DNA from: Candidatus Aminicenantes bacterium
Lineage (GTDB): Bacteria; Acidobacteriota; Aminicenantia; Aminicenantales; UBA8522
DNA: 64,000 nt
Direction: 5' to 3'
Assembly (NCBI GenBank): GCA_963764885.1
Contig: CAVXUH010000009.1
Location: 331,850 to 395,849 of the forward strand
Made by a program: the position numbers and the translations under genes
The notes under the pieces: model-generated
Database searches by the model: none
What the model was told of the DNA's origin: nothing
The model's input: only the letters and a program-made list of their open reading frames with translations
Shown here: piece after piece, positions 25,026 through 45,384 of the stretch
Position numbering within the stretch: position 1 is the stretch's first letter
Layout: each line of letters begins with the position of its first letter

Positions 25026-26414
25026 TCACTCCGACCCTTCCGTCCCGATCTCCAGGCGCTTGAGGATCTCGTTGAGCGTGGTCGGCTTCAACCCGAGCGA
25101 TTGGGCGGCGTTCTTCTGGACACCCTTGGCGCGCCGCAGCGCGTCGAGGATGATCTTCTTCTGGAAGGCGCGCGTCTGGTCCTTGAATGTCTGGAGCTGG
25201 CCGGAGCGGGCTGCCTTGTCCGGGGACCCGGCGAGCCCGCCCAGAACGGCGGGGGGGAGGGCGCCCCGGGTGATGAGCTTGGACTTGGTCAGGACGACGG
25301 CCCGCTCGATCACGTTTTCGAGCTCCCTCACGTTGCCCGGCCAGTCATGGTTCTCCAGGATCTCCATGACGTCCTCGCTCACCCCCTCGATCTCCTTGCT
25401 GTTCTCCCGGCTGTAGACATCGATGAAGTGACGCACGAGCGCCGGGATGTCCTCGGTCCGCTCGCGCAGCCGCGGCAGCTCGATCTTGATGACGTTCAGG
25501 CGGTAGAAGAGGTCCTGCCGGAAGGCCTTCCGCTCGATCAGCTCCTCGAGGTCGACGTTCGTGGCGGCGATGATCCGGGCATCCACCCGGAGCGTCCGGG
25601 TGCCGCCCAGGCGCATGAACTCCTTGTCCTGCATCACCCGGAGGAGCTTGGCCTGGGTCTCCAGGCTGAGCGTCGAGATCTCGTCGAAGAAGATGCTTCC
25701 CCGGTCGGCCGCTTCGAACAGGCCCCGCTTTTCGCTGACCGCGCCCGTGAAGGCGCCGCGGACGTGCCCGAAGAGATGACTCTCCAGGAGGTCGGGCGGC
25801 AGCGAGCCGCTGTTGACGATGACGAAGGTGAAGTTCTTCCGGTCGCTGTTCTGGTGGATGGCCCGGGCCACCAGCTCCTTTCCGGTTCCGCTCTCCCCTT
25901 GGATGAGGATGGTGCTCCGCGTCGGGGCGGTGGCCTTGATCAGGTCGAAGACCCGGCTCATCGGCAGGCTCCGGCCGATGATGTTGTCGAAACCGAACTT
26001 GCGCGTCAGCTCGTCCTTGAGCCGGATGTTCTCGTCCCGGAGGCTCTTGTGAGCGATGGCCCGCTCGATGGTCAGGAGCAGCTCTTCGTGCTTGAACGGC
26101 TTCTGGACGTAATCGTAGGCCCCGAGCTTCATGGCCGAGATGGCCGACTCCACCGAGGCGTAGGCGGTGATGATGATGATGACGGCCAGCGGGTCGATCT
26201 TCTTGATCGACTTGAGGACCCCGATCCCGTCCAGGCCGGGCATCAGCAGGTCGAGCAGGACGACGTCCCAGGCGCCGGCCGCGTATTTCTCCAGGGCTTC
26301 CTCGCCGGACGAGGAGAGCGTTACCTCGTAGCCCTCCGAGGTGAGCAGCTGGCCCAGGACGTCGCGGATAACGGGCTCGTCGTCGATGACATGGATCGTG
26401 CGCAGTTCGGCCAT
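25026..26414 (-). CDS. sigma54-dependent response regulator (NtrC/PilR family: REC + AAA+ + Fis-type HTH)
   Basis: 462 aa; REC D-box VVLLDLLMPGLDG, Walker A GESGTGKE, GAFTGA sigma54-contact motif, C-terminal HTH. Confidence 0.85.
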   Translation of the reverse strand: MAELRTIHVIDDEPVIRDVLGQLLTSEGYEVTLSSSGEEALEKYAAGAWDVVLLDLLMPGLDGIGVLKSIKKIDPLAVIIIITAYASVESAISAMKLGAYDYVQKPFKHEELLLTIERAIAHKSLRDENIRLKDELTRKFGFDNIIGRSLPMSRVFDLIKATAPTRSTILIQGESGTGKELVARAIHQNSDRKNFTFVIVNSGSLPPDLLESHLFGHVRGAFTGAVSEKRGLFEAADRGSIFFDEISTLSLETQAKLLRVMQDKEFMRLGGTRTLRVDARIIAATNVDLEELIERKAFRQDLFYRLNVIKIELPRLRERTEDIPALVRHFIDVYSRENSKEIEGVSEDVMEILENHDWPGNVRELENVIERAVVLTKSKLITRGALPPAVLGGLAGSPDKAARSGQLQTFKDQTRAFQKKIILDALRRAKGVQKNAAQSLGLKPTTLNEILKRLEIGTEGSE

Positions 26415-26416
26415 GG

Positions 26417-29275
26417 TCAGCTCCGCCCCGAGGTGGATTTGCCGCCGAGCTCTTTGCGGTCGAGGTCGGCGGGTATTCGGATCGAGAAATGGGTCCCCCG
26501 GCCGGCCTCGCTGCTGACCGAGATATGCCCTCCGTGCTCCTTGATGATCGCGTAGGAGATGGACAGCCCGAGGCCGGTGCCCTTGCCGATGCCCTTGGTC
26601 GTGAAGAACGGGTCGAAGATGCGGGGCAGATGCTGGGGCTTGATCCCCGCGCCCGTGTCGGAGATCCTGACGACGACGTCCCTGTCGTCGGCCGTCGCGT
26701 CGATGCCGAGCGTCCCGCCGCCGGGCATGGCGTCGAGGGCGTTGAGGATGATGTTGATGAATACCTGCTGCAGCCGCTCGCCCTGGGCCCAGATGGGCTT
26801 GACCGGCGCGGCCGTCATCTCCAGCTGGATGTTCATGGCCTTGAGCTTGTAGTCGATGAGCGAGATGATCTCCTGGAGGTTCTCCACGACATTCACCTTG
26901 TGGAAGGCCGACTCGGAGGGGTTGCGGGCGAAGTTGAGGAGGTTCTTGACGATCCGCGACACCCTGTCCGTCTGGACCTCGATCTTTCCCAGGATCTGGG
27001 AGTAGTGCCGGTCCGTGAGGTTCTTCTGGAGCATCTGGACATAGCTCGAGATGCCGGTCAACGGTGTGTTGATCTCGTGGGCGACGCCCGCCGACAGGAG
27101 CCCGATCGAGGCCAGCTTCTCCGAAGTCACGAGCTGGTGCTGGAGCTGGATCTTTTCGGTGATGTCCTCGAAGACGATGATCGTTCCGTAGGGGACCATG
27201 GAATTGTCGAACAGGGGCGTCTTGGCGATGTCGAAGATCCGCTTGGCGCCGCTCCTCATCTCGAGCGAGATCTCGCTCAGGAGCCGGAAGTCCGACTGGC
27301 TGTCGGTCGGGAAGAGCGCCTGGACGTTGTCCGGACCGAGGATGAGCTGGAGGCTCTGGCCCAGGGCCTCCTGCTTCTTCAGGCTGAAGGCCCTTTCCAG
27401 GACCCGGTTCCAGCCGATGACCCGTCCGTTCTCGTCGACGACCGCGACGCCGACCGTCAGGCTCTCGATGATGTTCTCGCTGTAATCCTTGAGCCGCTCG
27501 AGCTCCAGGGCCCGCAGCCGCGCCTGGTTGTAGAGCGAGGCGTTCTCGATGGCCAGAGCGACCGATGACGATATGGTCGTCAGCAGCTCCCAGTCCTCGC
27601 TGTTCAGGTAAGAGTTGTCGGTCTTCCGGCCCATGGCCAGGCAGCCGATCAGCTTCTTCTCCACGCGCAGGGGCAGGAAGTGGGCGAGGCCCATCACGGC
27701 CAGGACCTCCGCCCCGGGCAGGTGTTCCCGTCGATCGGCCTGGCTCTCGAACGAGATGTACTCGTTTTCCGCCAGGCTGTTGAAGAAGGAGGGTTCGAGG
27801 TCGAGGCGGGCGGCGAGGGAGGGAAGGTTGCCCTTGGAGCTGGCCACGGCCAGCGCCCGGCCGTCGTCGGTCTCGGGCAGGAACAGCACCAGATTCTCGA
27901 GGGAGAGGGCGTTGGCGATCAGGTCCAGCAGGGACCCGGAGAGCTTATCCAGGTTCCTTTCCCTATTGAGCTCTTTGGTGATGGTCACGAGGGTTTTCCG
28001 GTAGCGGTAAGCGCGCCTGTAGAAAACCCGGTCGAGGAGTGAGGCGAAGAGCTTTTTGAGCGGGGTGAAGAGCGTCGCGCCCAGGATCATCGCCAGCAGC
28101 CCGAGGATCAGGACATTCAGCCTGTTCCCGGAGGACATCTGGGTCCCGGAGCTGAGGGCGACATACACGCAGGCGAGGACGAAATAGGAGAAGGCGAGCG
28201 TCGCCGCTTTCTTGAGCAGGACCTCGAAGTCCATGAGCTTGTACCTGGACACGGCGTAGGCGAGTGTCAATGGGATGAGGGCCTGGAGCAGGACGGTCAG
28301 CTCGGCGAACCGCGAGGGGATCTGGCCCAGAAAGTACGGCACGGCGTAGAAAGCGGCGAACGGGGCCAGTCCCATCCCCAGGCCGGTCAGGATCCAGCCG
28401 AGCTGTTTCCTGACCAGCTGGCTCGGCGGGACCCGGAGCCCGAAAAAGATGACGGCCAGGGCGGCCAGCACGCAGAGTGCCAGCTGCAATACCTCCAGCC
28501 GCTCAAGGGAGCTGTAAGCCGAAAAAACCAGGGCGTTGTCCCACCGCCGGGCGAATGGCAGGTGGAGGGCCAAGTTCGCAAGCAGGAGCAGGACGCCCGG
28601 CGCATAGATGAGATAGACAAGGGTCGGCTTATGTTTGATGAACCTCTTCCGCTGGGGGAAGATCAGGAAGAAATGGACCAGGAGGGGCGGGAAAAAGATC
28701 AGCGCGGCCTTGCCCAGCCAGGAGAACAGACTGTCCAGGGCGTCGAACTCGCCCGTGGCTGAAAACACGTAGAGGGAATAGAGGGAGCCGCAGAGGAGAT
28801 AATAATAAAGGTAGGGAAGGGAGAAGGTTTTTTTGGAGTTGAAGAAGACCACGACGGCGATCGCCAGGGTGGTGAAACCGATCAGGGCCAGATAAAAATA
28901 GAGAAGCGGCGAGCCCCTCTGCGCCAGGAAGAAAGGCGGGAAGAGGAGCTCGCCCGCCCGGCTGATCTGGTACCTGACCTTCTGGCTCGTGGCGCCCGCG
29001 ATCCAGAGGCTCTTGGCGATATCGATCTTGCCCGTCACGGGCAGGTCGTTGATCGAGAGGAGAACGTCGCCTTTCTTGATGCCCGCCAGGTAGGCGGGGC
29101 CGTTGAGCTCGACCTTGAGGGCGGTCAGACGGCCGCCCCTCTCGCCCCAGGTCACACCGTCCGTCGGCTCACGCCAGACGATCTTCCTGTAGACGTTCAC
29201 CCCGCCCAGGGCGACGGCCAACCCGATTACGATGAGGACGATGAGGGTCCGTCTCTTCTTCACGGCCGAATCCAA
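26417..29275 (-). CDS. multidomain sensor histidine kinase: N-terminal TM + PDZ domain, polytopic membrane region, GAF/PAS-like domains, HisKA + HATPase
   Basis: 952 aa; PDZ-like LNGPAYLAGIKKGDVLLSINDLPV; H-box LASIGLLSAGVAHEINTPL; G-boxes DTGAGI and GKGTGLGLS; stop overlaps regulator start. Confidence 0.8.
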   Translation of the reverse strand: MDSAVKKRRTLIVLIVIGLAVALGGVNVYRKIVWREPTDGVTWGERGGRLTALKVELNGPAYLAGIKKGDVLLSINDLPVTGKIDIAKSLWIAGATSQKVRYQISRAGELLFPPFFLAQRGSPLLYFYLALIGFTTLAIAVVVFFNSKKTFSLPYLYYYLLCGSLYSLYVFSATGEFDALDSLFSWLGKAALIFFPPLLVHFFLIFPQRKRFIKHKPTLVYLIYAPGVLLLLANLALHLPFARRWDNALVFSAYSSLERLEVLQLALCVLAALAVIFFGLRVPPSQLVRKQLGWILTGLGMGLAPFAAFYAVPYFLGQIPSRFAELTVLLQALIPLTLAYAVSRYKLMDFEVLLKKAATLAFSYFVLACVYVALSSGTQMSSGNRLNVLILGLLAMILGATLFTPLKKLFASLLDRVFYRRAYRYRKTLVTITKELNRERNLDKLSGSLLDLIANALSLENLVLFLPETDDGRALAVASSKGNLPSLAARLDLEPSFFNSLAENEYISFESQADRREHLPGAEVLAVMGLAHFLPLRVEKKLIGCLAMGRKTDNSYLNSEDWELLTTISSSVALAIENASLYNQARLRALELERLKDYSENIIESLTVGVAVVDENGRVIGWNRVLERAFSLKKQEALGQSLQLILGPDNVQALFPTDSQSDFRLLSEISLEMRSGAKRIFDIAKTPLFDNSMVPYGTIIVFEDITEKIQLQHQLVTSEKLASIGLLSAGVAHEINTPLTGISSYVQMLQKNLTDRHYSQILGKIEVQTDRVSRIVKNLLNFARNPSESAFHKVNVVENLQEIISLIDYKLKAMNIQLEMTAAPVKPIWAQGERLQQVFINIILNALDAMPGGGTLGIDATADDRDVVVRISDTGAGIKPQHLPRIFDPFFTTKGIGKGTGLGLSISYAIIKEHGGHISVSSEAGRGTHFSIRIPADLDRKELGGKSTSGRS

Positions 29276-29314: not shown

Positions 29315-29614
29315 TCAGTCCAGGATGTGTCTTATCCCGGTTCGGCAGGCCCATTTTATGCCGGGCTCCCGGAGGAGCTTCTTCAGGGCCTGGTCCTCCT
29401 TCAACCCCAGCGGCTTGGTATCTCGGGAGAAGAATGAGCTCATATAATCCTTGGGCTTTCTGGCCTGGAACTCCTGGGGGTCGGGAACGGCCTCGACGGG
29501 CGGATTGGCCTCCGGCGCGGGCTGGGGCTTATCCTGGGTCTGCGGGGAAACAGGGATCAGGGAGAGAGCGCCGATCAGGATCCCCGCTCCCAGCCGTCTT
29601 TTCATCGAATTCAA
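29315..29614 (-). CDS. small secreted hypothetical protein (signal peptide, Pro-rich)
   Basis: 99 aa; MNSMKRRLGAGILIGALSLIPVSP...; first gene of the minus-strand unit with the kinase and regulator; not pilin-like. Confidence 0.35.
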   Translation of the reverse strand: MNSMKRRLGAGILIGALSLIPVSPQTQDKPQPAPEANPPVEAVPDPQEFQARKPKDYMSSFFSRDTKPLGLKEDQALKKLLREPGIKWACRTGIRHILD

Positions 29615-29760: not shown

Positions 29761-30969
29761 ATGCCATACTTTCTATGCCATATGGCCAATGATGATGGTG
29801 CCTACCTGACGCGCTCTTTTCTGGCTTCTACAGCCGAAGACTGCCGAAAACACTTCGAGTCCGAGGGACTCTGCGTCCTTTCCGTGAAAAAAGACTGGAA
29901 AAAGCTCTCCCTGCCGGGCCTGCCGTTCGAGAAAAAGATCAAAGACAAAGATTTTATCATGTTCAACCAGGAGCTGATGGCCCTCCTCAAGGCCGGCTAC
30001 CCGATCCTCAAGAGCCTGGATCTGATCATCAGCCGGACGAAGAATGTCCATCTCAAGGAGATGCTGCTCAAGGTCGATGGCGACATCCGGTCGGGGAAGG
30101 CCCTGTCCGAGGCCTTTGCGCCGTTCGAGAAGAACTTCAACAAGGTCTATACGGCCTCGCTCATGGCCGGCGAACAGAGCGGCAACCTGCCGGGGACGAT
30201 CGGCCGCTATATCGACTATGCCCGGGTCATCTCCCAGACGAAATCGAAGATCCGGTCCGCCCTGATCTACCCGACCCTCCTCTTGACGCTTTCCTTGGTG
30301 CTCATGGCGGTCATCATGAATTTCGTCCTGCCTCGATTCCTGAGCTTCTACCAGGATTTCGAGGCCCAGCTGCCCGCCATCACCAGGCTGCTCATGGGAT
30401 TTTCCGAGGTGCTTCGGCGGGCGATGCCGTTCCTGATCCTCCTGGGCGTGGCGGGCCTGCTCGTGCTCTTCCGGCTGCGGAAAAACGAAAAGGTCATCGT
30501 GGGCATCGACCGTCTGAAGCTCCGCATCCCTTACGCCAAGGGGCTCCTGCAGGAAACGGGGGTGTCTCTCTTCAGCCGGACGCTCGGCCTGCTGCTCGAG
30601 GCCGGCATCACCCTTCTTCCGTCCCTGCCCATCGCCTCCCAGGCCATCCCCAACAAGTACTTCGGGAAACGGATGGAACATCTTCCGGAGGACATCAGGA
30701 ACGGGGGGACGCTCTCCGATTCCCTGACCAAGGCGGGCTTTTTCCCGATGCTGGCCGTGGACATGGTGCGCATCGGCGAGACCTCGGCCAACCTGCACGG
30801 CATGCTCAGGGAGATCGCCGACGTCTATGACCAGCGGACCCAGGCCAAGATCGACACCTTCGTCTCGCTTATCGAGCCGGTGGTCATCATCTTCATGGGC
30901 ATGATGGTCGCCGGCATGCTCCTGGCCATCTACCTCCCGATTTTCAACATCATCAAGATGACGAGATAA
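29761..30969 (+). CDS. pilC: type IV pilus assembly inner-membrane platform protein PilC (GspF family)
   Basis: 402 aa; two GspF repeats, N-terminal F-Y-A-D-G-like cytoplasmic domain, three TM segments. Confidence 0.8.
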   Translation: MPYFLCHMANDDGAYLTRSFLASTAEDCRKHFESEGLCVLSVKKDWKKLSLPGLPFEKKIKDKDFIMFNQELMALLKAGYPILKSLDLIISRTKNVHLKEMLLKVDGDIRSGKALSEAFAPFEKNFNKVYTASLMAGEQSGNLPGTIGRYIDYARVISQTKSKIRSALIYPTLLLTLSLVLMAVIMNFVLPRFLSFYQDFEAQLPAITRLLMGFSEVLRRAMPFLILLGVAGLLVLFRLRKNEKVIVGIDRLKLRIPYAKGLLQETGVSLFSRTLGLLLEAGITLLPSLPIASQAIPNKYFGKRMEHLPEDIRNGGTLSDSLTKAGFFPMLAVDMVRIGETSANLHGMLREIADVYDQRTQAKIDTFVSLIEPVVIIFMGMMVAGMLLAIYLPIFNIIKMTR

Positions 30970-30971
30970 CC

Positions 30972-32582
30972 ATGAATAAAGCCGAAGCCCAGAAAATGAT
31001 CCAGCAGGAGGAGGCCGAGTCCAGGAAGCTCGCCGAGCGGTATCACGTGCCCTACATCGACCTCTCGACCCGCCTGCTGAACCGGGAGCTCGTTCAGTCG
31101 TTTCCCCCGGAATTCCTGTACCGCGCCAATTTCATCCCCCTCGAAGCGAACGAAACCCACGTCAAGATCGCCATCGCCGACCCCTCGGATATCGGCGCGA
31201 TCGACTCCATCGAGTCTTTCCTGGGGAAAAAGGTCCAGGTCTACGCCGCCTCCAAGCGGGCCATCCAGGAAGCCCTCCGCAAGAGCGAGACCGCGCTCCA
31301 GGTCCTGAAGGACGCCACCGAAGGCTTCATCGTCCAGGTCGTCGAGAAAGACGGCGGCGAGGAAGAGGAGGTCATCTCCCTGGAGAAGCTGGCCGACCAG
31401 GACGGGTCGATCATCAAGCTCGTCAACACCATCATCTTCACCGCCGTCCAGAAGCGGGGGAGCGACGTCCATGTGGAGTCGCGCGAGGACGGGGTCAAGG
31501 TCAAGTACCGGATCGACGGCGTCCTCAGCGAGGCCATGGAGCCGATCGACAAGAAGTTCCAGTCCGCCATCATCTCGCGCATCAAGGTCATGTCCGACCT
31601 GGACATCTCGGAACGCCGCGTCCCCCAGGATGGCCGGTTCCGGCTCAAGATCAAGGACAAGACCATCGATTTCCGCGTCTCCATCATGCCCAGCATCTAC
31701 GGCGAGGACGCCGTCATCCGCATCCTGGACAAGGAGATGATCACCGAGGCCATCGCCGACCTCAAGCTCGACCTGTTGGGCTTCTCCGATGAGATGCTGA
31801 AAAAATTCCGCAAGTACATCTCCCAGCCCTACGGCATGGTGCTCGTCACCGGGCCGACGGGCAGCGGCAAGACGACGACGCTGTATGCCGCGCTGACGGA
31901 GATCAAATCGATCGAGGACAAGATCGTGACGATCGAGGACCCGGTGGAATACCAGGTCAGCGGCATCACCCAGATCCCCGTGAACGAGAAGAAGGGACTC
32001 ACCTTCGCCCGCGGCCTGCGGTCGATCCTCCGGCACGACCCCGACAAGATCATGGTCGGCGAGATCCGCGACCCGGAAACCGCCCAGATCGCCATCCAGT
32101 CCGCCCTGACCGGTCACCTGGTCTTCACCACCGTCCACGCCAATAACGTCTTCGACGTCATCGGCCGGTTCATCCACATGCAGGTCGACCCGTACAGCTT
32201 TGTTTCGGCCTTGAACTGCGTCCTGGCGCAGCGCCTGGTGCGCGTCCTCTGCCCGAAGTGCAAGGGCTCGGTCCACTATACCGACGAGCAGCTCATCGAA
32301 TCCGGGCTCGACCCGGAGAAGTACAGGGACGGGGAGTTCTTCGAGGCCCGCGGCTGCGCCAACTGCAATTTTACAGGCTACCAGGGCCGGACGGCCATCG
32401 CCGAGCTGCTGGAGCTCTCGGACCCCATCCGCGAGTTGATCCTGGTCCGCAAGCCGCTCTCCGAGGTCAAGAAACAGGCGAAAGAAGAGGGCATGGTCTT
32501 CATCCGGCAAGTCGGCCTGGACAAGGTTTTGCGCGGGGTGACCAGTCTCAAAGATCTGAACAAGGTCACTTTCGTCGAATAG
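30972..32582 (+). CDS. pilB: type IV pilus assembly ATPase PilB (GspE family)
   Basis: 536 aa; Walker A GPTGSGKTT, Asp box, His box, tetracysteine CPKC...CANC zinc motif. Confidence 0.85.
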   Translation: MNKAEAQKMIQQEEAESRKLAERYHVPYIDLSTRLLNRELVQSFPPEFLYRANFIPLEANETHVKIAIADPSDIGAIDSIESFLGKKVQVYAASKRAIQEALRKSETALQVLKDATEGFIVQVVEKDGGEEEEVISLEKLADQDGSIIKLVNTIIFTAVQKRGSDVHVESREDGVKVKYRIDGVLSEAMEPIDKKFQSAIISRIKVMSDLDISERRVPQDGRFRLKIKDKTIDFRVSIMPSIYGEDAVIRILDKEMITEAIADLKLDLLGFSDEMLKKFRKYISQPYGMVLVTGPTGSGKTTTLYAALTEIKSIEDKIVTIEDPVEYQVSGITQIPVNEKKGLTFARGLRSILRHDPDKIMVGEIRDPETAQIAIQSALTGHLVFTTVHANNVFDVIGRFIHMQVDPYSFVSALNCVLAQRLVRVLCPKCKGSVHYTDEQLIESGLDPEKYRDGEFFEARGCANCNFTGYQGRTAIAELLELSDPIRELILVRKPLSEVKKQAKEEGMVFIRQVGLDKVLRGVTSLKDLNKVTFVE

Positions 32583-34649: not shown

Positions 34650-35175
34650 AATCGTCGCGGTCCTTCTGATCCTGGCGGCGGAGATGCCGCTCCTCCGGCC
34701 CCTCTCCGCCGGCGCCCAGGATCAGCCCAAGGCGGCGGAAAACGCGGCTCCGTCGCTCATCCGCATGGACCTGCTCGGCCGGCCGCCGTCGCCGACCGCC
34801 CCCCCCAAGAGGAATATTTTCGCGCCCCGGTTGGGCGCCCCGGCCCAGACGGAAACGGCCGCCCAGGCGGCGGTACCCGGGGCGCTCGGCCTGCCGCCCG
34901 GCAACCCCGGCGCGGCGGCGCCCGTCTCGGGGGCCGCGGCCCAGCCGGCGGCCGCCCCCGCCTTCAGCATCGACCTCCGCTATATCGGGTTCGTCGATTC
35001 CCGGAGAACCCGGAAGATCATCGGATTGGTGATATTCCAGGGTCAGGCCCGCGCCGTGGTCGAGGGCGAGGTGATCAGCGAGGGGGTCCGCGTCGGCAAG
35101 ATCAGCCGTGAGCAGATCGAGGTGATACTGCCGGACTCTTCGACGAGGGCATTTTCCCTGGAAGGAGAAGAATGA
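34636..35175 (+). CDS. pilP: PilP-like periplasmic protein (signal peptide, Ala/Pro-rich linker, C-terminal beta domain)
   Basis: 179 aa; position between pilO and secretin; C-terminal RYIGFVD...VILPD region. Confidence 0.4.
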   Translation: MPIFKIVAVLLILAAEMPLLRPLSAGAQDQPKAAENAAPSLIRMDLLGRPPSPTAPPKRNIFAPRLGAPAQTETAAQAAVPGALGLPPGNPGAAAPVSGAAAQPAAAPAFSIDLRYIGFVDSRRTRKIIGLVIFQGQARAVVEGEVISEGVRVGKISREQIEVILPDSSTRAFSLEGEE

Positions 35176-37316
35176 TGAACAAGCGCACCTGGACGGTCGT
35201 CATTATCGCCCTCGGTCTCTGGGGATGCGCCGGCTTCGGCGGCTACTATTACCGGCAGGGCAATCAGGCCGCGATCAACAGGAACTGGGACCTGGCCATC
35301 CAGAATTATGAGAAGGCGCTCCGGGAAAGCCCGAAGGACCACGCCTACCAGACCGCCCTCATCCGGGCCAAGATATCGGCCGGCCTGCGGAGCGTCCGGG
35401 ACGCCAGGATCCTGGCCGCCCAGGGGAAAAAAGAAGAGGCCCTCAAGCAATATGAGAAGGCCCTGTCCTACGATCCCGAAAACCGGAGCGTGCTCGACGA
35501 GATGCGCCGTCTGAGCCCGCAGACGCTGCCGGTCGAGCAGGTCAAGCCCTTCAAGCTTGAGCCGCCGGTCAAGCTGAAGGTCGCGCGGGACAACATCGAG
35601 CTCAAGTTCACGGACGCCAGCGTTCGGTCGATCTTCCAGGCCCTGGGAAAGCACGCCGAGATCAGCATCATCTACGACGAGCTCTTCAAGGACATGAACC
35701 TGACGATCGACATCAGCGGGAAGGAATTCGAGGACGCCGTCAGCTACCTGTGCCTGGCCAGCAAGAACTTCTACCGGATCATCGACGAGAGGACGATCGT
35801 CATCGTCCCCGACCAGCCGGTCAAGAGGATCCAGTACGAACAGAACGCGATCCAGGTTTTCTACCTTTCCAACATCAACGCCCAGGACATCTTCGCCGCG
35901 CTTCAGCAGATGCTGCGGAGCCAGTTCCGGGCGCCGAATATCTTTGTGGACAAGAACCTCAACACCATCACCGTTCGTGATACCCCGGGCAATATCGAGC
36001 TGGCGGCCCAGCTCATCAGGAAGTGGGACAAGTCGAAGGCCGAGGTCATGATCGACCTCGAGATCATGGAGGTTTCCCGGCAGAGGCTGCGGACGATGGG
36101 AGTCGACTACAGCGACATCGGTCTCGGGGTCCGGTATTCCGGACCGGGCGCCTCGGCCGACGAGGGTTGGTACAACCTAGCCGAGCTCGCGCTGGGCAAG
36201 AAAACGAGCTACCAGGTCTCCCTGCCATCCGCCGTCATCCGTCTCCTGGAGACCGACTCCGATACCAAGCTGCTCGCCCAGCCTCGGCTCCGCGGAATGG
36301 CCGATGAAGACATCAAGACACTGGTCGGGCAGAAGATCCCCATCCCCCAGACGACCTTCTCGACGTTCGCCGCCGGCGGGGTCAACAACGTCCCCATCAC
36401 GTCTTATACCTATCAGGACGTCGGCCTGGACATCAAGATCAAGCCGAAGATCCACGTGGAGGGTGAGGTCACGCTCGAGATCGAGCTCAAGATCACGGCG
36501 CTCGCCGGCGTCGGCTACGCCGATATCCCGATCATCGCCACCCGCGAGGTCAAGAATGTGATGCGGCTCAAGGACGGCGAATCCAACCTCCTGGGCGGGC
36601 TGCTCCGCGACGAGGAAAGAAAATCGTTATCGGGGATCGCCGGGCTCAAGAACATTCCCGTCCTGGGGAACCTCTTTGGCGCCACGGACACGACGATCGA
36701 TCAATCCGACCTGGTGATGACGATCACGCCGTATATCATCCGGCCGCTGAAACGGACGGCGGAGGACGACGCTCCCGTCTGGATCCAGCTCGAAGGACTA
36801 TCGCCCACGGACCGGGGCGATAGGGAAGAGCCGGGCGGTCTCGACGTGGTCGGCCCGGGCCGCGAGGGGCCCGTGCCCGCGCCGGCCGCCGACCAGGAGC
36901 CGGCGGGCGACAACCAGGTCACCCTGGACCCCTCGAACTTCGAGGTCCCGGCCGGCCGGGAGTTCCGGATCAGCATCAACCTGCGATCCCAGCAGGAAGT
37001 GGGCAACCTGTCGATGACCGTCGGGTTCAGCAGCCAGGTCGCCAAGCTCAAGGACGTGGTCGAAGGCGGCCTCGTCCGGCAGATGGGCGACAAGGTCCCT
37101 TTCCTCAAGAGCATCTCCGACGGCAGCTGCACCATCGGCATTACCAGCCCCCAGCTGGGCCACGGCTTCCGGGGGGGCGGCAACCTGGCCGTGCTCGTCT
37201 TCGAGGCGGTGGCCGCCGGGGAGACGCCGGTGACGGTCTCGGGCGTTTCCGCCAACGGCCCGACGGGGCAAGTCGTCACGTTCACATCCCGGGACGCGCG
37301 GGTCGTCGTGCACTGA
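35172..37316 (+). CDS. pilQ: secretin PilQ/GspD family with N-terminal lipoprotein signal + TPR region and C-terminal cohesin-like beta-sandwich domain
   Basis: 714 aa; lipobox LGLWGC; TPR-like repeats (NYEKALRESPKDHAYQ...QYEKALSYDPENRSVL); secretin core ...NIPVLGNLFG...DLVMTITPYIIRP; C-terminal about 140 aa cohesin-like (NFEVPAGREFRISINL...GNLAVLVFEAVAAGETPVTVSG). Confidence 0.8.
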   Translation: MMNKRTWTVVIIALGLWGCAGFGGYYYRQGNQAAINRNWDLAIQNYEKALRESPKDHAYQTALIRAKISAGLRSVRDARILAAQGKKEEALKQYEKALSYDPENRSVLDEMRRLSPQTLPVEQVKPFKLEPPVKLKVARDNIELKFTDASVRSIFQALGKHAEISIIYDELFKDMNLTIDISGKEFEDAVSYLCLASKNFYRIIDERTIVIVPDQPVKRIQYEQNAIQVFYLSNINAQDIFAALQQMLRSQFRAPNIFVDKNLNTITVRDTPGNIELAAQLIRKWDKSKAEVMIDLEIMEVSRQRLRTMGVDYSDIGLGVRYSGPGASADEGWYNLAELALGKKTSYQVSLPSAVIRLLETDSDTKLLAQPRLRGMADEDIKTLVGQKIPIPQTTFSTFAAGGVNNVPITSYTYQDVGLDIKIKPKIHVEGEVTLEIELKITALAGVGYADIPIIATREVKNVMRLKDGESNLLGGLLRDEERKSLSGIAGLKNIPVLGNLFGATDTTIDQSDLVMTITPYIIRPLKRTAEDDAPVWIQLEGLSPTDRGDREEPGGLDVVGPGREGPVPAPAADQEPAGDNQVTLDPSNFEVPAGREFRISINLRSQQEVGNLSMTVGFSSQVAKLKDVVEGGLVRQMGDKVPFLKSISDGSCTIGITSPQLGHGFRGGGNLAVLVFEAVAAGETPVTVSGVSANGPTGQVVTFTSRDARVVVH

Positions 37317-43461: not shown

Positions 43462-45384
43462 TCATTGCAGGGGCAGCTTGATGGTGAATTTCGTGCCCTG
43501 GCCGACCTCGCTCTCCACGCTGATCAGGCCGCCGTGCCGCTGGATGACGCCGTAGGTCATGGCCAGCCCGAGCCCCGTCCCCTTGCCCTTGTCTTTGGTC
43601 GTGAAGAAAGGCTCGAAGATCTTGCGCATGTCCGCTTCGCTGATGCCGCTCCCCGTGTCGGCGACGGAGATGACGACCATGCCGAACTGGGGCTCGGCCG
43701 AGGTCGTGATGGTCAGCCGGCCGCCGTTCGGCATGGCGTCGGCGGCGTTGACGGCGAGGTTGTTGATGACCGATCGGATCTCTCCCGGGTCGACGCTGAC
43801 GCGGGGAAGGGGCCGGTCGAGGGCCTTGACGATCTCGATATTCTGGAAGCTGACGTGCTTCTCCAGGATCCTCAGGCTGTCCTCGATGATCAGGTTGAGG
43901 TCGCTCAGCACCCGCTCGGGCTTGGAGTCGCGGGCGAAGTCGAGCAGGCCCCGGACGATCCCCCGGCAGCGCATCGTCTCGTCCAGGATGACCTTGAGGT
44001 CCTCCTCGTACTTCGTGCCCCTCATGTCCTCGAGCAGCAGGCTGCTGTAAGTCAGCACGCCGGTCAGCGGGTTGTTGATCTCGTGGGCGATGCCCGAGGC
44101 CAGCCGGCCGATCGAGGCCAGCTTCTCGGACTTGAGGATGGTCCGGGCCGCCTGGTCCTTGAGCTCCCGGTCGCGCTCCTCGATGGCCTCGACCATGCCG
44201 TTGAAGGCCTGCCCCAGGTTCCGGGCGTCGTCGTCGTCGTGCGGGGCGATCTCGATCCGGTGGTAAACCCCTTGCGCCATCTCCTTCGAGGCGCCGATGA
44301 TTCTCTTGACGGGCTTGGTGTAGACGTTGATCAGGTAGCCGGCCAGGATCAGGGCGATAATCGTCGTGACGAGGATGACGAGGAGAAAGGACAGCGCCGT
44401 GCTCCTCACCAGGAGATCGTACTTCTGCTTGAGGATGCCGACGTAGAGAATGCCCAGGGTCTTGTGGTCCAGGTCGAAGATGGGGCTGTAGCCCGAGATG
44501 TACCAGCTGTCGACGACGAAGGCATTGTCCACCCAGACCTGGCCCTGTTCGAAGACGCGATGGTAGACTTCCTCGGACACCTGCGTGCCGATGGCCCGCC
44601 GGCCGGCGGCGTCGACGACGTTGGTGGCCACCCGGATGTCCCCCAGGAAGATGGTCGTCGTGCCGACGTCTTTTCCCCGGAGCTTTTCTTCCTTGAAGAC
44701 CAGTCTCTTGAACCGGTCGATGAACTCGGTGTTGTTGTTGAGGAGGACGGCGGCGTAGAGGATCCCCGTCATCCTGCCGGCGTCCTTGATCGGCGCCGCG
44801 ATCTTGATGACCATCGCCTTGTCCTCGAGGGGTGAGGACCTGGCCCGGGCGCGGGGCGTCGGGACGACCGGGATGAGGGTCCGCTCGGCGAGCTCCGGTC
44901 CTTCGTTCCGGATGCTCGAGTAGTCGAGGACTCCCGTCCCGGCGACCGGGGCCTCCGTCTTCAGGGCCTCCTGGATGGTCCGGTAGTGGGCCATGCTGTC
45001 GCCGAAGGCGTCCGGGTTGTTGGCCCGCACCAGGACGGTCCCCTGCGGGTCGACCACATTGACGATATCGAACCCGAAGTCGCGGCGGATGCGTCCCAGC
45101 GCCTCGTGGAGCGTTGCCCGGTCGGCGGCCGCCGTGGCCCGGACGATCTCGGACGTCTTGGCCAGGTACTGGATCGTCATCGACCGCCGGGCGATGTCCT
45201 CCCGGTAGAGCTCGTCGATGGCCGCCAGGCTCGTCCGGACGCTGTCGAAAGCCTCGCGGATGACGTTCTTGTTGAGGATGTTGAGCCCGATGATGATCGT
45301 CAGCGTGCCCGTCAGGAAGACGATGGACAGCAGGCTGACGACGAGCTTGAAGCGAATATTCGACCGCAGGATGGACTTGATCAA
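43462..45384 (-). CDS. sensor histidine kinase with periplasmic double-Cache-like domain, HAMP, HisKA, HATPase
   Basis: 640 aa; two TM segments flanking an about 280-aa periplasmic domain; H-box LASGIAHEINNPL; DTGSGI, GKGTGLGLA. Confidence 0.75.
   Translation of the reverse strand: MIKSILRSNIRFKLVVSLLSIVFLTGTLTIIIGLNILNKNVIREAFDSVRTSLAAIDELYREDIARRSMTIQYLAKTSEIVRATAAADRATLHEALGRIRRDFGFDIVNVVDPQGTVLVRANNPDAFGDSMAHYRTIQEALKTEAPVAGTGVLDYSSIRNEGPELAERTLIPVVPTPRARARSSPLEDKAMVIKIAAPIKDAGRMTGILYAAVLLNNNTEFIDRFKRLVFKEEKLRGKDVGTTTIFLGDIRVATNVVDAAGRRAIGTQVSEEVYHRVFEQGQVWVDNAFVVDSWYISGYSPIFDLDHKTLGILYVGILKQKYDLLVRSTALSFLLVILVTTIIALILAGYLINVYTKPVKRIIGASKEMAQGVYHRIEIAPHDDDDARNLGQAFNGMVEAIEERDRELKDQAARTILKSEKLASIGRLASGIAHEINNPLTGVLTYSSLLLEDMRGTKYEEDLKVILDETMRCRGIVRGLLDFARDSKPERVLSDLNLIIEDSLRILEKHVSFQNIEIVKALDRPLPRVSVDPGEIRSVINNLAVNAADAMPNGGRLTITTSAEPQFGMVVISVADTGSGISEADMRKIFEPFFTTKDKGKGTGLGLAMTYGVIQRHGGLISVESEVGQGTKFTIKLPLQ

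Follow-up and report, generated by a model that had tools for sequence, protein, structure and literature searches.

The 64,000-nucleotide stretch of DNA analysed here (positions 331,850 to 395,849 of contig CAVXUH010000009.1, Candidatus Aminicenantes; hereafter the window) encodes a secretin that carries a lipobox and tetratricopeptide repeats (TPR) at its N-terminus and a cohesin-fold domain at its C-terminus. With a probability of roughly 60%, we take this protein to be a secretin of the PilQ type, forming the outer-membrane pore of a machine that resembles a type IVa pilus. In this reading it is a self-piloting liposecretin whose S-domain position is occupied by a tethered periplasmic cohesin. 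To reach the outer membrane and assemble there, secretins as a rule depend on a separate pilotin and, in many systems, on a C-terminal S domain as well. If our reading is true, the protein would represent a third solution, with a lipidated TPR domain of the pilotin type built in and a tethered cohesin standing at the S-domain position. It would serve an entire phylum of abundant bacteria from sediment and soil, most of them uncultured.

The protein, 714 residues long, is the product of one open reading frame (ORF) on the forward strand (35172–37316, with ATG at 35172 and the stop codon at 37314–37316). From the N- to the C-terminus it comprises a lipobox, a TPR domain, the N0 and N3 domains, the secretin core, a conserved post-barrel segment, a variable Pro-rich tether and the cohesin-fold domain (Table 1). 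An earlier note, made from the sequence of this DNA, had proposed a lipoprotein TPR domain, a secretin and a cohesin-like domain behind a Pro/Glu-rich linker. This three-part architecture is borne out by a Pfam scan, AlphaFold2 modelling and a Foldseek search, and the strings quoted in the note could all be located in the protein: LGLWGC (residues 14–19), TPYIIRP (519–525), VPAGREFRISINL and NLAVLVFEAVAAGETPVTVSG.

The secretin part is recognized by Pfam models for both the core (Secretin PF00263, 115.2 bits against a cut-off of 27.5, E 3.1e-33, residues 359–524) and the N3-type domain (Secretin_N PF03958, 47.1 bits against 28.2, E 2.9e-12, residues 228–289). The N0 domain scores slightly under the cut-off of FecR_C (21.3 bits, residues 144–211), but the STN or FecR_C cut-offs are passed in relatives, and AlphaFold2 predicts a β-α fold with a predicted local distance difference test (pLDDT) score of about 80. 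When the core was searched against the PDB, the nearest chains were those of GspD (6i1y, E 6e-20) and PilQ (4av2 and 9sh1, about 9e-14), and RcpA and InvG chains were retrieved as well. Together with the Pfam score, these chains agree with the original assignment of the protein as a PilQ/GspD homologue. Against GspD, the alignment breaks off at residue 525, with about 60 residues of the GspD chain still to come; this remainder we take to be its S domain. Against the subfamily models of NCBIfam, the protein scores 108.9 bits for PilQ (TIGR02515, subfamily cut-off 284.35) and 150.2 bits for GspD (TIGR02517, equivalog cut-off 351.35), below the cut-off in both cases. No Pfam match to an AMIN domain was found in the secretin at E≤1; AMIN is not universal among PilQ proteins.

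The assignment of the C-terminal domain as a cohesin is solid. Residues 591–700 match Pfam Cohesin (PF00963) with 27.1 bits, above the cut-off of 24.1 (E 5e-6), and in eight more distant relatives the same model scores 24.7–53.6 bits. Modelled alone with 20 homologues, the last 136 residues gave a confident AlphaFold2 structure (pLDDT 92.2, predicted TM-score 0.85) with the nine-stranded β-sandwich (jelly-roll) fold of cohesins. In a Foldseek search against the PDB, all 50 matches listed were cohesins, with TM-scores of about 0.66–0.84; the best of them is the non-cellulosomal cohesin 2xdh from Archaeoglobus fulgidus (E 1e-11, TM-score 0.83). The cohesin-like β-sandwich that had been proposed from the letters alone is thereby upheld, both at the level of sequence and at the level of the predicted fold.

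Column identity computed across 118 full-length homologues indicates that the cohesin domain (mean 0.71–0.88) and the secretin core (0.72–0.93) are about equally conserved. Purifying selection acts on the cohesin module. The stretch of 20 residues past the last barrel strand (521–540) has a mean column identity of 0.81; the segment 526–540, which stands at the position of an S domain, may play an S-domain-like role. The tether that follows (541–580) is variable (0.40–0.46), accommodates indels and is modelled with a pLDDT below 50.

When 1.84 billion representative proteins were searched with a profile of the cohesin domain, 1891 matched at E≤1e-3, and many of these have 3–9 tandem cohesins. 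Among the ten strongest non-secretin matches that were scanned, four have type IX secretion sorting tails and one has a dockerin; because of these sorting tails, we regard the tandem-cohesin relatives as surface proteins. A word-indexed search with the C-terminal 135 residues alone yielded only 14 short pieces, all from split or frameshifted versions of this gene, and was uninformative on distribution. In two other assemblies, P0021 with P0129 (contig of 110,981 bp) and P0104 with P0122 (contig of 290,833 bp), the secretin is split and the cohesin lies in a separate ORF of the same contig, the N-terminal part being 505–590 residues long and the cohesin part 105–218. These split copies are probably frameshifts or sequencing errors and not natural stand-alone cohesins. 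Neither the window nor the 80 related loci (up to 22 kb each, about 1.3 Mb) yielded a dockerin, whether searched with a regular expression for duplicated F-hand motifs of the canonical kind or with phmmer and the dockerin of P0143 as query; the search covered the window and these loci, not whole genomes. Neither was a further cohesin gene found in the window or in the roughly 1.3 Mb of related loci.

At the other end of the protein, the translation begins with a basic K/R n-region and a hydrophobic h-region (MMNKRTWTVVIIALGLWG), followed by the lipobox cysteine C19 (LWG/C19). In 113 of 120 close homologues a lipobox-like motif is kept, in most cases as [FL]W[GS]C, and a lipobox-like motif is likewise present in 112 of the 119 scanned members of the distant family, with canonical LAGC or VGC lipoboxes appearing in more distant relatives. 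Residues from about 31 to 105 score above the cut-offs of both TPR_2 (36.3 bits, cut-off 27) and TPR_1 (29.6 bits, cut-off 27.8). The AlphaFold2 model places helices at residues 23–35, 39–52, 57–83, 87–100 and 105–114, with block-mean pLDDT of about 68–86. The earlier note had called this domain pilotin-like. The description holds insofar as the domain is predicted to be a lipoprotein segment with TPR repeats; a specific sequence relation to pilotins did not emerge, since a profile of the TPR region searched against the PDB retrieved generic and designed TPR proteins, and no pilotin (PilF, PilW, TadD) was among the 60 best matches listed. The likeness to pilotins is therefore one of analogy, not homology.

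The architecture is by no means confined to this genome. A first homologue search returned more than 1000 close homologue clusters, the best 120 of which are 55–100% identical to the query. All but two of these 120 are full length (about 700–726 residues) with the same architecture, and the remaining two are split or frameshifted. The names among them include Candidatus Aminicenantes for the organism and "general secretion pathway protein D", given by the Joint Genome Institute (JGI), for the protein. A scan of GTDB with one genome per species found 242 loci. Each of the best 80 encodes the architecture, mostly at full length, a few being clipped by contig ends. Since the same single ORF recurs in all of them, the fusion does not result from assembly; an assembly or gene-fusion artefact is ruled out, one single ORF being kept in more than 200 species. 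About half of the 80 loci are named Aminicenantes, and most of the others carry placeholder or apparently wrong labels. Thus L003–L005, L007, L008, L011–L013 and many more come from species-representative metagenome-assembled genomes whose titles read "uncultured Eubacteriales bacterium" or "Clostridiales bacterium", with "Candidatus Desulfaltia" in one case; on Aminicenantes-type operons, these titles look like placeholders or mislabelling.

A search with six divergent members added at least 2004 further clusters of 740–890 residues. The few named ones bear the labels Acidobacteriota, Acidobacteria or Vicinamibacteraceae. Local hidden Markov models identified TPR, core and cohesin in all 119 newly listed distant members that were scanned, the tail past the core being 182–345 residues long. 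From the homologue, GTDB and distant-family searches it follows that the architecture is not peculiar to this genome: a large family, which extends over Aminicenantes and other lineages labelled Acidobacteriota, has it as its standard secretin. The combination had been put forward as unfamiliar for secretins, with the proviso that finding it to be common would speak against the idea. Rare it is not, which in part counts against the idea: it is the norm in a very large family, and the NCBI pipeline already calls members "cohesin domain-containing protein". We nonetheless found no published description of a lipoprotein TPR–secretin–cohesin architecture in the literature. What appears to be new here, judging by sequence, is thus a liposecretin with fused TPR repeats and a cohesin at the S-domain position, widespread and machine-annotated but, as far as we could find, with no published characterization. 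Because the current names range from "GspD" and "CpaC" to "tetratricopeptide repeat protein" and "cohesin domain-containing protein", the family merits an annotation model of its own.

How might such a protein work? The domain order, its conservation and the selection on the cohesin module are shown by the sequences; the mechanism put forward here goes further and is inferred from what is established for other secretins. In the type II and type III secretion systems (T2SS and T3SS) and in Tad, the S domain or C-terminal tail is periplasmic and binds lipoprotein pilotins (PMC10499894; PMC12531336). One of these, TadD, is a TPR lipoprotein and a bona fide pilotin; the part of RcpA that it binds is the final four or five residues (PMC10499894). 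The liposecretin BfpB has no S domain; there, a lipidated N-terminal domain spans from N0 to the outer membrane, taking over from the S-domain/pilotin route (PMC12531336). We propose that in the present protein the lipid anchor, together with the TPR domain next to it, would take the place of separate TPR lipoprotein pilotins (PilF, PilW, Tgl, TadD) or of the lipidated LG domain of BfpB. The lipidated TPR domain and the 23-residue Pro-rich linker would then bridge N0 to the outer membrane as a built-in pilotin and, with anchor and TPR doing the pilotin's job, the secretin would pilot itself. The conserved segment 526–540 is a plausible contact for the TPR domain. Twelve to fifteen protomers would form a gated channel whose N0 ring touches the PilP-like protein. 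The chain would leave the barrel where other secretins carry their periplasmic S domain and, for this reason, 12–15 cohesins on flexible tethers would be expected at the periplasmic rim of the pore, beneath the outer membrane. There, the cohesin modules would most likely serve as protein–protein docking or ring-stabilizing elements for some partner. The earlier note had left it open whether the cohesin is on the extracellular or the periplasmic side. Since the extension starts at the position of the periplasmic S domain, the periplasmic location appears likelier; neither an extracellular location nor the docking of a dockerin, both raised in the note, is supported.

Several points weigh against this reading. 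The full-length AlphaFold2 monomer has a low-confidence barrel (pLDDT from below 50 to 57) and an N3 domain below 50, which leaves the TPR, N0 and cohesin domains, each taken singly, as its usable parts; the poor barrel model leaves the relative placement of TPR, barrel and cohesin unsupported. The tryptophan at position −2 of the lipobox is non-canonical. The role assigned to the TPR domain in assembly or targeting is proposed by analogy, and the domain has no specific sequence relation to known pilotins. PilF has six TPR repeats. Only about 2.5–3 can be counted here, compared with five in TadD (PMC10499894). The core scores slightly higher against GspD than against PilQ, and it passes no equivalog cut-off. 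No partner was found, nor a dockerin in the window or the related loci searched. Finally, Lieberman et al. (2015) reported, on the basis of flow cytometry, that the C termini of BfpB and PilQ are extracellular (PMC4453517). If this is correct for secretins of type IV pili, it contradicts the periplasmic placement; among the PilQ-relevant cryo-EM papers examined, we found no explicit statement on the location of the PilQ C-terminus.

The cohesin-fold module could, on the other hand, have a structural or cell-wall-anchoring role, either forming a peripheral ring or binding peptidoglycan or polysaccharide in place of AMIN domains or of the TsaP ring. The secretin indeed has no AMIN domain, homology implies 12–15 copies of the module per ring, and the tether is long enough for the peptidoglycan layer. 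Moreover, the β-jelly-roll of cohesins resembles carbohydrate-binding modules, and the window and the 80 loci offer no dockerin partner nearby. However, the 50 Foldseek matches listed are all cohesins rather than carbohydrate-binding modules, Pfam and profile searches put the domain inside the cohesin family, and a flexible, poorly conserved tether speaks against a fixed ring. We consider such a role plausible but not likely.

Less probable still is that the cohesins are displayed on the surface, exposed around the pilus exit, where they would dock dockerin-bearing enzymes, adhesins or pilus-associated factors and turn the secretin into a cell-surface scaffold. That the domain is a genuine cohesin by both sequence and fold fits this view, as does the fact that its nearest non-secretin relatives are the tandem-cohesin proteins described above, several with type IX sorting tails and one with a dockerin. 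Long Pro-rich linkers are typical of surface scaffoldins, and the post-core tail of distant members measures 182–345 residues. The extracellular C termini reported for BfpB and PilQ also belong on this side. Yet the extension begins exactly at the S-domain position, and the C-terminal S domain or tail of T2SS, T3SS and Tad secretins is periplasmic and binds pilotins. There is also no known route by which a folded 15-kDa C-terminal domain of a secretin would cross the outer membrane, and the regular-expression and phmmer searches revealed no dockerin motif in the window or the 80 loci. A related idea, to which we likewise give little credence, is that the 12–15 tethered cohesins make up a docking crown, either at the surface or at the periplasmic rim, which would capture a dockerin-like or EF-hand-like module on PilY1, minor pilins or secreted enzymes. 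If true, this would couple an interaction of the cohesin–dockerin type to a type IV filament machine, something for which we found no description in any secretin.

The genes around the secretin bear on the nature of the machine. The secretin is the last of seven tightly packed genes (intergenic gaps of 2, 15, −4, −17, −14 and −4 bases), with a 4-base overlap between its start codon and the stop of the gene before it. We read this operon as pilC-pilB(MshEN)-pilM-pilN-pilO-pilP-pilQ (Table 1). The gene order is kept in every related locus of the 80 that reaches far enough, and also around the distant relative P0210; a pilN-like gene lies between the pilM-like and pilO-like genes in 71 of the 80. 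The 64-kb window contains neither a prepilin gene (by motif search) nor a PilT-like second ATPase. Prepilin-like genes do occur in about 15 related loci, where two or three of them are located 2–8 kb downstream of the secretin. Loci with downstream prepilin trios include L021, L033, L036, L050, L061, L067, L071, L073 and L078. The sole one annotated, L039 (14957–21592, forward strand), encodes a GspH/FimU-like protein, two N-methyl proteins, a PilX_N protein and a 1218-residue PilY1 with FG-GAP repeats, and this cluster is a type IVa minor-pilin/PilY1 set. In the window, the place of the minor-pilin cluster after the secretin is taken by an NTPase_1 gene, ThiF and an aldehyde:ferredoxin oxidoreductase. 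The operon neighbours and the prepilin clusters of related loci thus lead us to interpret the machine as type IVa-pilus-like, with PilQ as its secretin.

The machine might instead be a T2SS and the protein its GspD, with the cohesin recruiting or retaining secretion substrates in the periplasm. This keeps a small probability because the core scores better against GspD (E 6e-20) than against PilQ (about 1e-13). The best NCBIfam and PDB scores are indeed to GspD and GspF, the JGI family name points the same way, and the window has neither a pilin gene nor a PilT-like second ATPase. On the other side, the equivalog cut-offs of GspD, GspF and GspE are all unmet, and the PilB score of the assembly ATPase is slightly above its GspE score. 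Profiles of neighbouring genes match PilM and PilP, and a Pfam PilO-like match is found as well. The prepilin cluster downstream of the secretin in L039 is of the type IVa minor-pilin type with PilX_N and PilY1, and similar trios occur in about 15 loci. Taken together, a T2SS seems to us rather improbable.

Divergent from the operon, on the reverse strand, are a PDZ-GAF-PAS histidine kinase (26417–29275) and a sigma-54-dependent response regulator (25026–26414), which look like a PilS/PilR-type pair with an unusual PDZ/GAF sensor; 52 of the 80 loci have the kinase beside the operon. Between kinase and operon lies an ORF of 99 residues (29315–29614, reverse strand) whose N-terminus resembles a signal peptide, whose middle is rich in proline and whose C-terminal part is conserved. 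This ORF belongs to no Pfam family and is kept in this position in 51 of the 80 loci at 48–77% identity. A second histidine-kinase catalytic region (43471–44160, reverse strand), inside an ORF of 640 residues (43462–45384), shares 40% identity with the C-terminal portion of the kinase beside the operon. The MshEN domain of MshE binds cyclic di-GMP. By analogy, the presence of MshEN on the PilB/GspE-like ATPase suggests that the machine may be under second-messenger control.

Table 1. Positions in the window of the parts of the secretin gene and of the other genes of its operon.
Feature	Position	Strand	Basis
pilC/gspF-like platform protein	29761..30969	+	Pfam T2SSF E 1e-51; NCBIfam GspF 286 and PilC 235 bits, both under equivalog cut-offs
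pilB/gspE-like assembly ATPase, N-terminal MshEN	30972..32582	+	T2SSE E 1.6e-128; MshEN E 2.6e-18; NCBIfam PilB 537 and GspE 530 bits
pilM-like, 316 aa	32598..33548	+	no Pfam match; 12-orthologue profile: M. xanthus PilM 3jc8 E 7.9e-6, Thermus PilM 2ych E 0.0037
pilN-like, 185 aa	33545..34102	+	position; faint NCBIfam GspM match E 0.0067; no clear family
pilO/gspM-like, 187 aa	34086..34649	+	Pfam PilO 20.5 bits (cut-off 22); NCBIfam GspM E 1.1e-5; weak
pilP-like, 179 aa	34636..35175	+	13-orthologue profile: Neisseria PilP 4av2_M E 0.0016, 2ivw E 0.0051; weak matches
Secretin: signal peptide with lipobox (MMNKRTWTVVIIALGLWG/C19)	35172..35228	+	translation; conserved lipobox-like motif
Secretin: TPR domain, about 2.5–3 repeats, aa 23–114	35238..35513	+	Pfam TPR_2, TPR_1; AlphaFold2 helices
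Secretin: Pro-rich linker from TPR to N0, aa 115–137	35514..35582	+	composition; low pLDDT at 117–132; terminal conserved PVKLK motif in consensus
Secretin: N0 (STN/FecR_C-like), aa 138–215	35583..35816	+	FecR_C near cut-off; AlphaFold2 β-α fold
Secretin: Secretin_N (N3-type), aa 228–289	35853..36038	+	Pfam PF03958
Secretin: core, aa 359–525, ending TITPYIIRP	36246..36746	+	Pfam PF00263
Secretin: conserved post-barrel segment, aa 526–540, LKRTAEDDAPVWIQL	36747..36791	+	column identity; S-domain position
Secretin: variable Pro/Gly/Asp/Glu-rich tether, aa 541–580	36792..36911	+	low conservation, indels, pLDDT <50
Secretin: cohesin-fold domain, aa 581–714, plus stop codon	36912..37316	+	Pfam PF00963; AlphaFold2; Foldseek

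One last possibility is that the cohesin is a ligand of the TPR domain of the same or a neighbouring subunit, a fused pair of pilotin and S domain stapling adjacent protomers during assembly; TPR grooves of pilotins do bind secretin C-terminal tails, as in TadD–RcpA (PMC10499894), the two domains constantly co-occur (119 of 119 scanned distant members and the full-length relatives) and secretin topology would bring both ends near the outer membrane at the barrel periphery, but the extreme C-terminus is predicted to be the last β-strand of the cohesin with no free tail, and the post-barrel segment 526–540 is a more obvious TPR ligand; we consider such a pair possible but improbable. A specific partner of the cohesin, if there is one, would mean that a Gram-negative outer-membrane machine makes use of a cohesin-based interaction, remote from the cellulosome setting in which cohesins are understood. 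It would also provide a handle on the organization of type IV pilus machines in Acidobacteriota.

Compared with known systems, the protein shares with PilQ (M. xanthus 3jc8, V. cholerae 6w6m, P. aeruginosa 6ve2) the secretin core and the N0 and N3 domains. As for PilQ, its gene is the last one, behind pilM-, pilN-, pilO- and pilP-like genes, and a type IVa minor-pilin/PilY1 set lies downstream in the related locus L039. It differs from PilQ in the missing AMIN domain, in the lipidated N-terminus with TPR repeats and in the PilQ score below the cut-off. Moreover, it has a C-terminal extension of about 190 residues, whereas the solved PilQ chains stop 2–18 residues past the last barrel strand. 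HxcQ and TcpC are lipidated self-piloting secretins. With such liposecretins (BfpB, TcpC, HxcQ) the present protein shares the N-terminal lipobox on the secretin itself and the lack of a classical S-domain/pilotin pair. In both BfpB and our protein, the lipidated N-terminal segment must span the distance from N0 to the outer membrane, as has been shown for the LG domain of BfpB (PMC12531336). However, that domain is extended, while here a folded TPR domain and a Pro-rich linker would do the same, and BfpB lacks a C-terminal cohesin.

The TPR part invites comparison with PilF, PilW, Tgl and TadD, which likewise are outer-membrane lipoproteins (a property only predicted here) with TPR repeats, tied to the secretin of a type IV filament. 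They are, however, separate polypeptides, whereas here the TPR repeats are fused in cis to the secretin. The S domain of GspD occupies the same position in the chain, directly past the last barrel strand. It is a short helical element, in contrast to the short conserved segment, disordered tether and 135-residue β-sandwich found here. Finally, the C-terminal domain belongs to the same fold family as the non-cellulosomal cohesins (2xdh) and the cohesins of Gram-negative tandem-cohesin surface proteins, and scores above the PF00963 cut-off. Unlike in the tandem-cohesin proteins, it is present as a single copy, is fused to an outer-membrane channel and is likely located in the periplasm.

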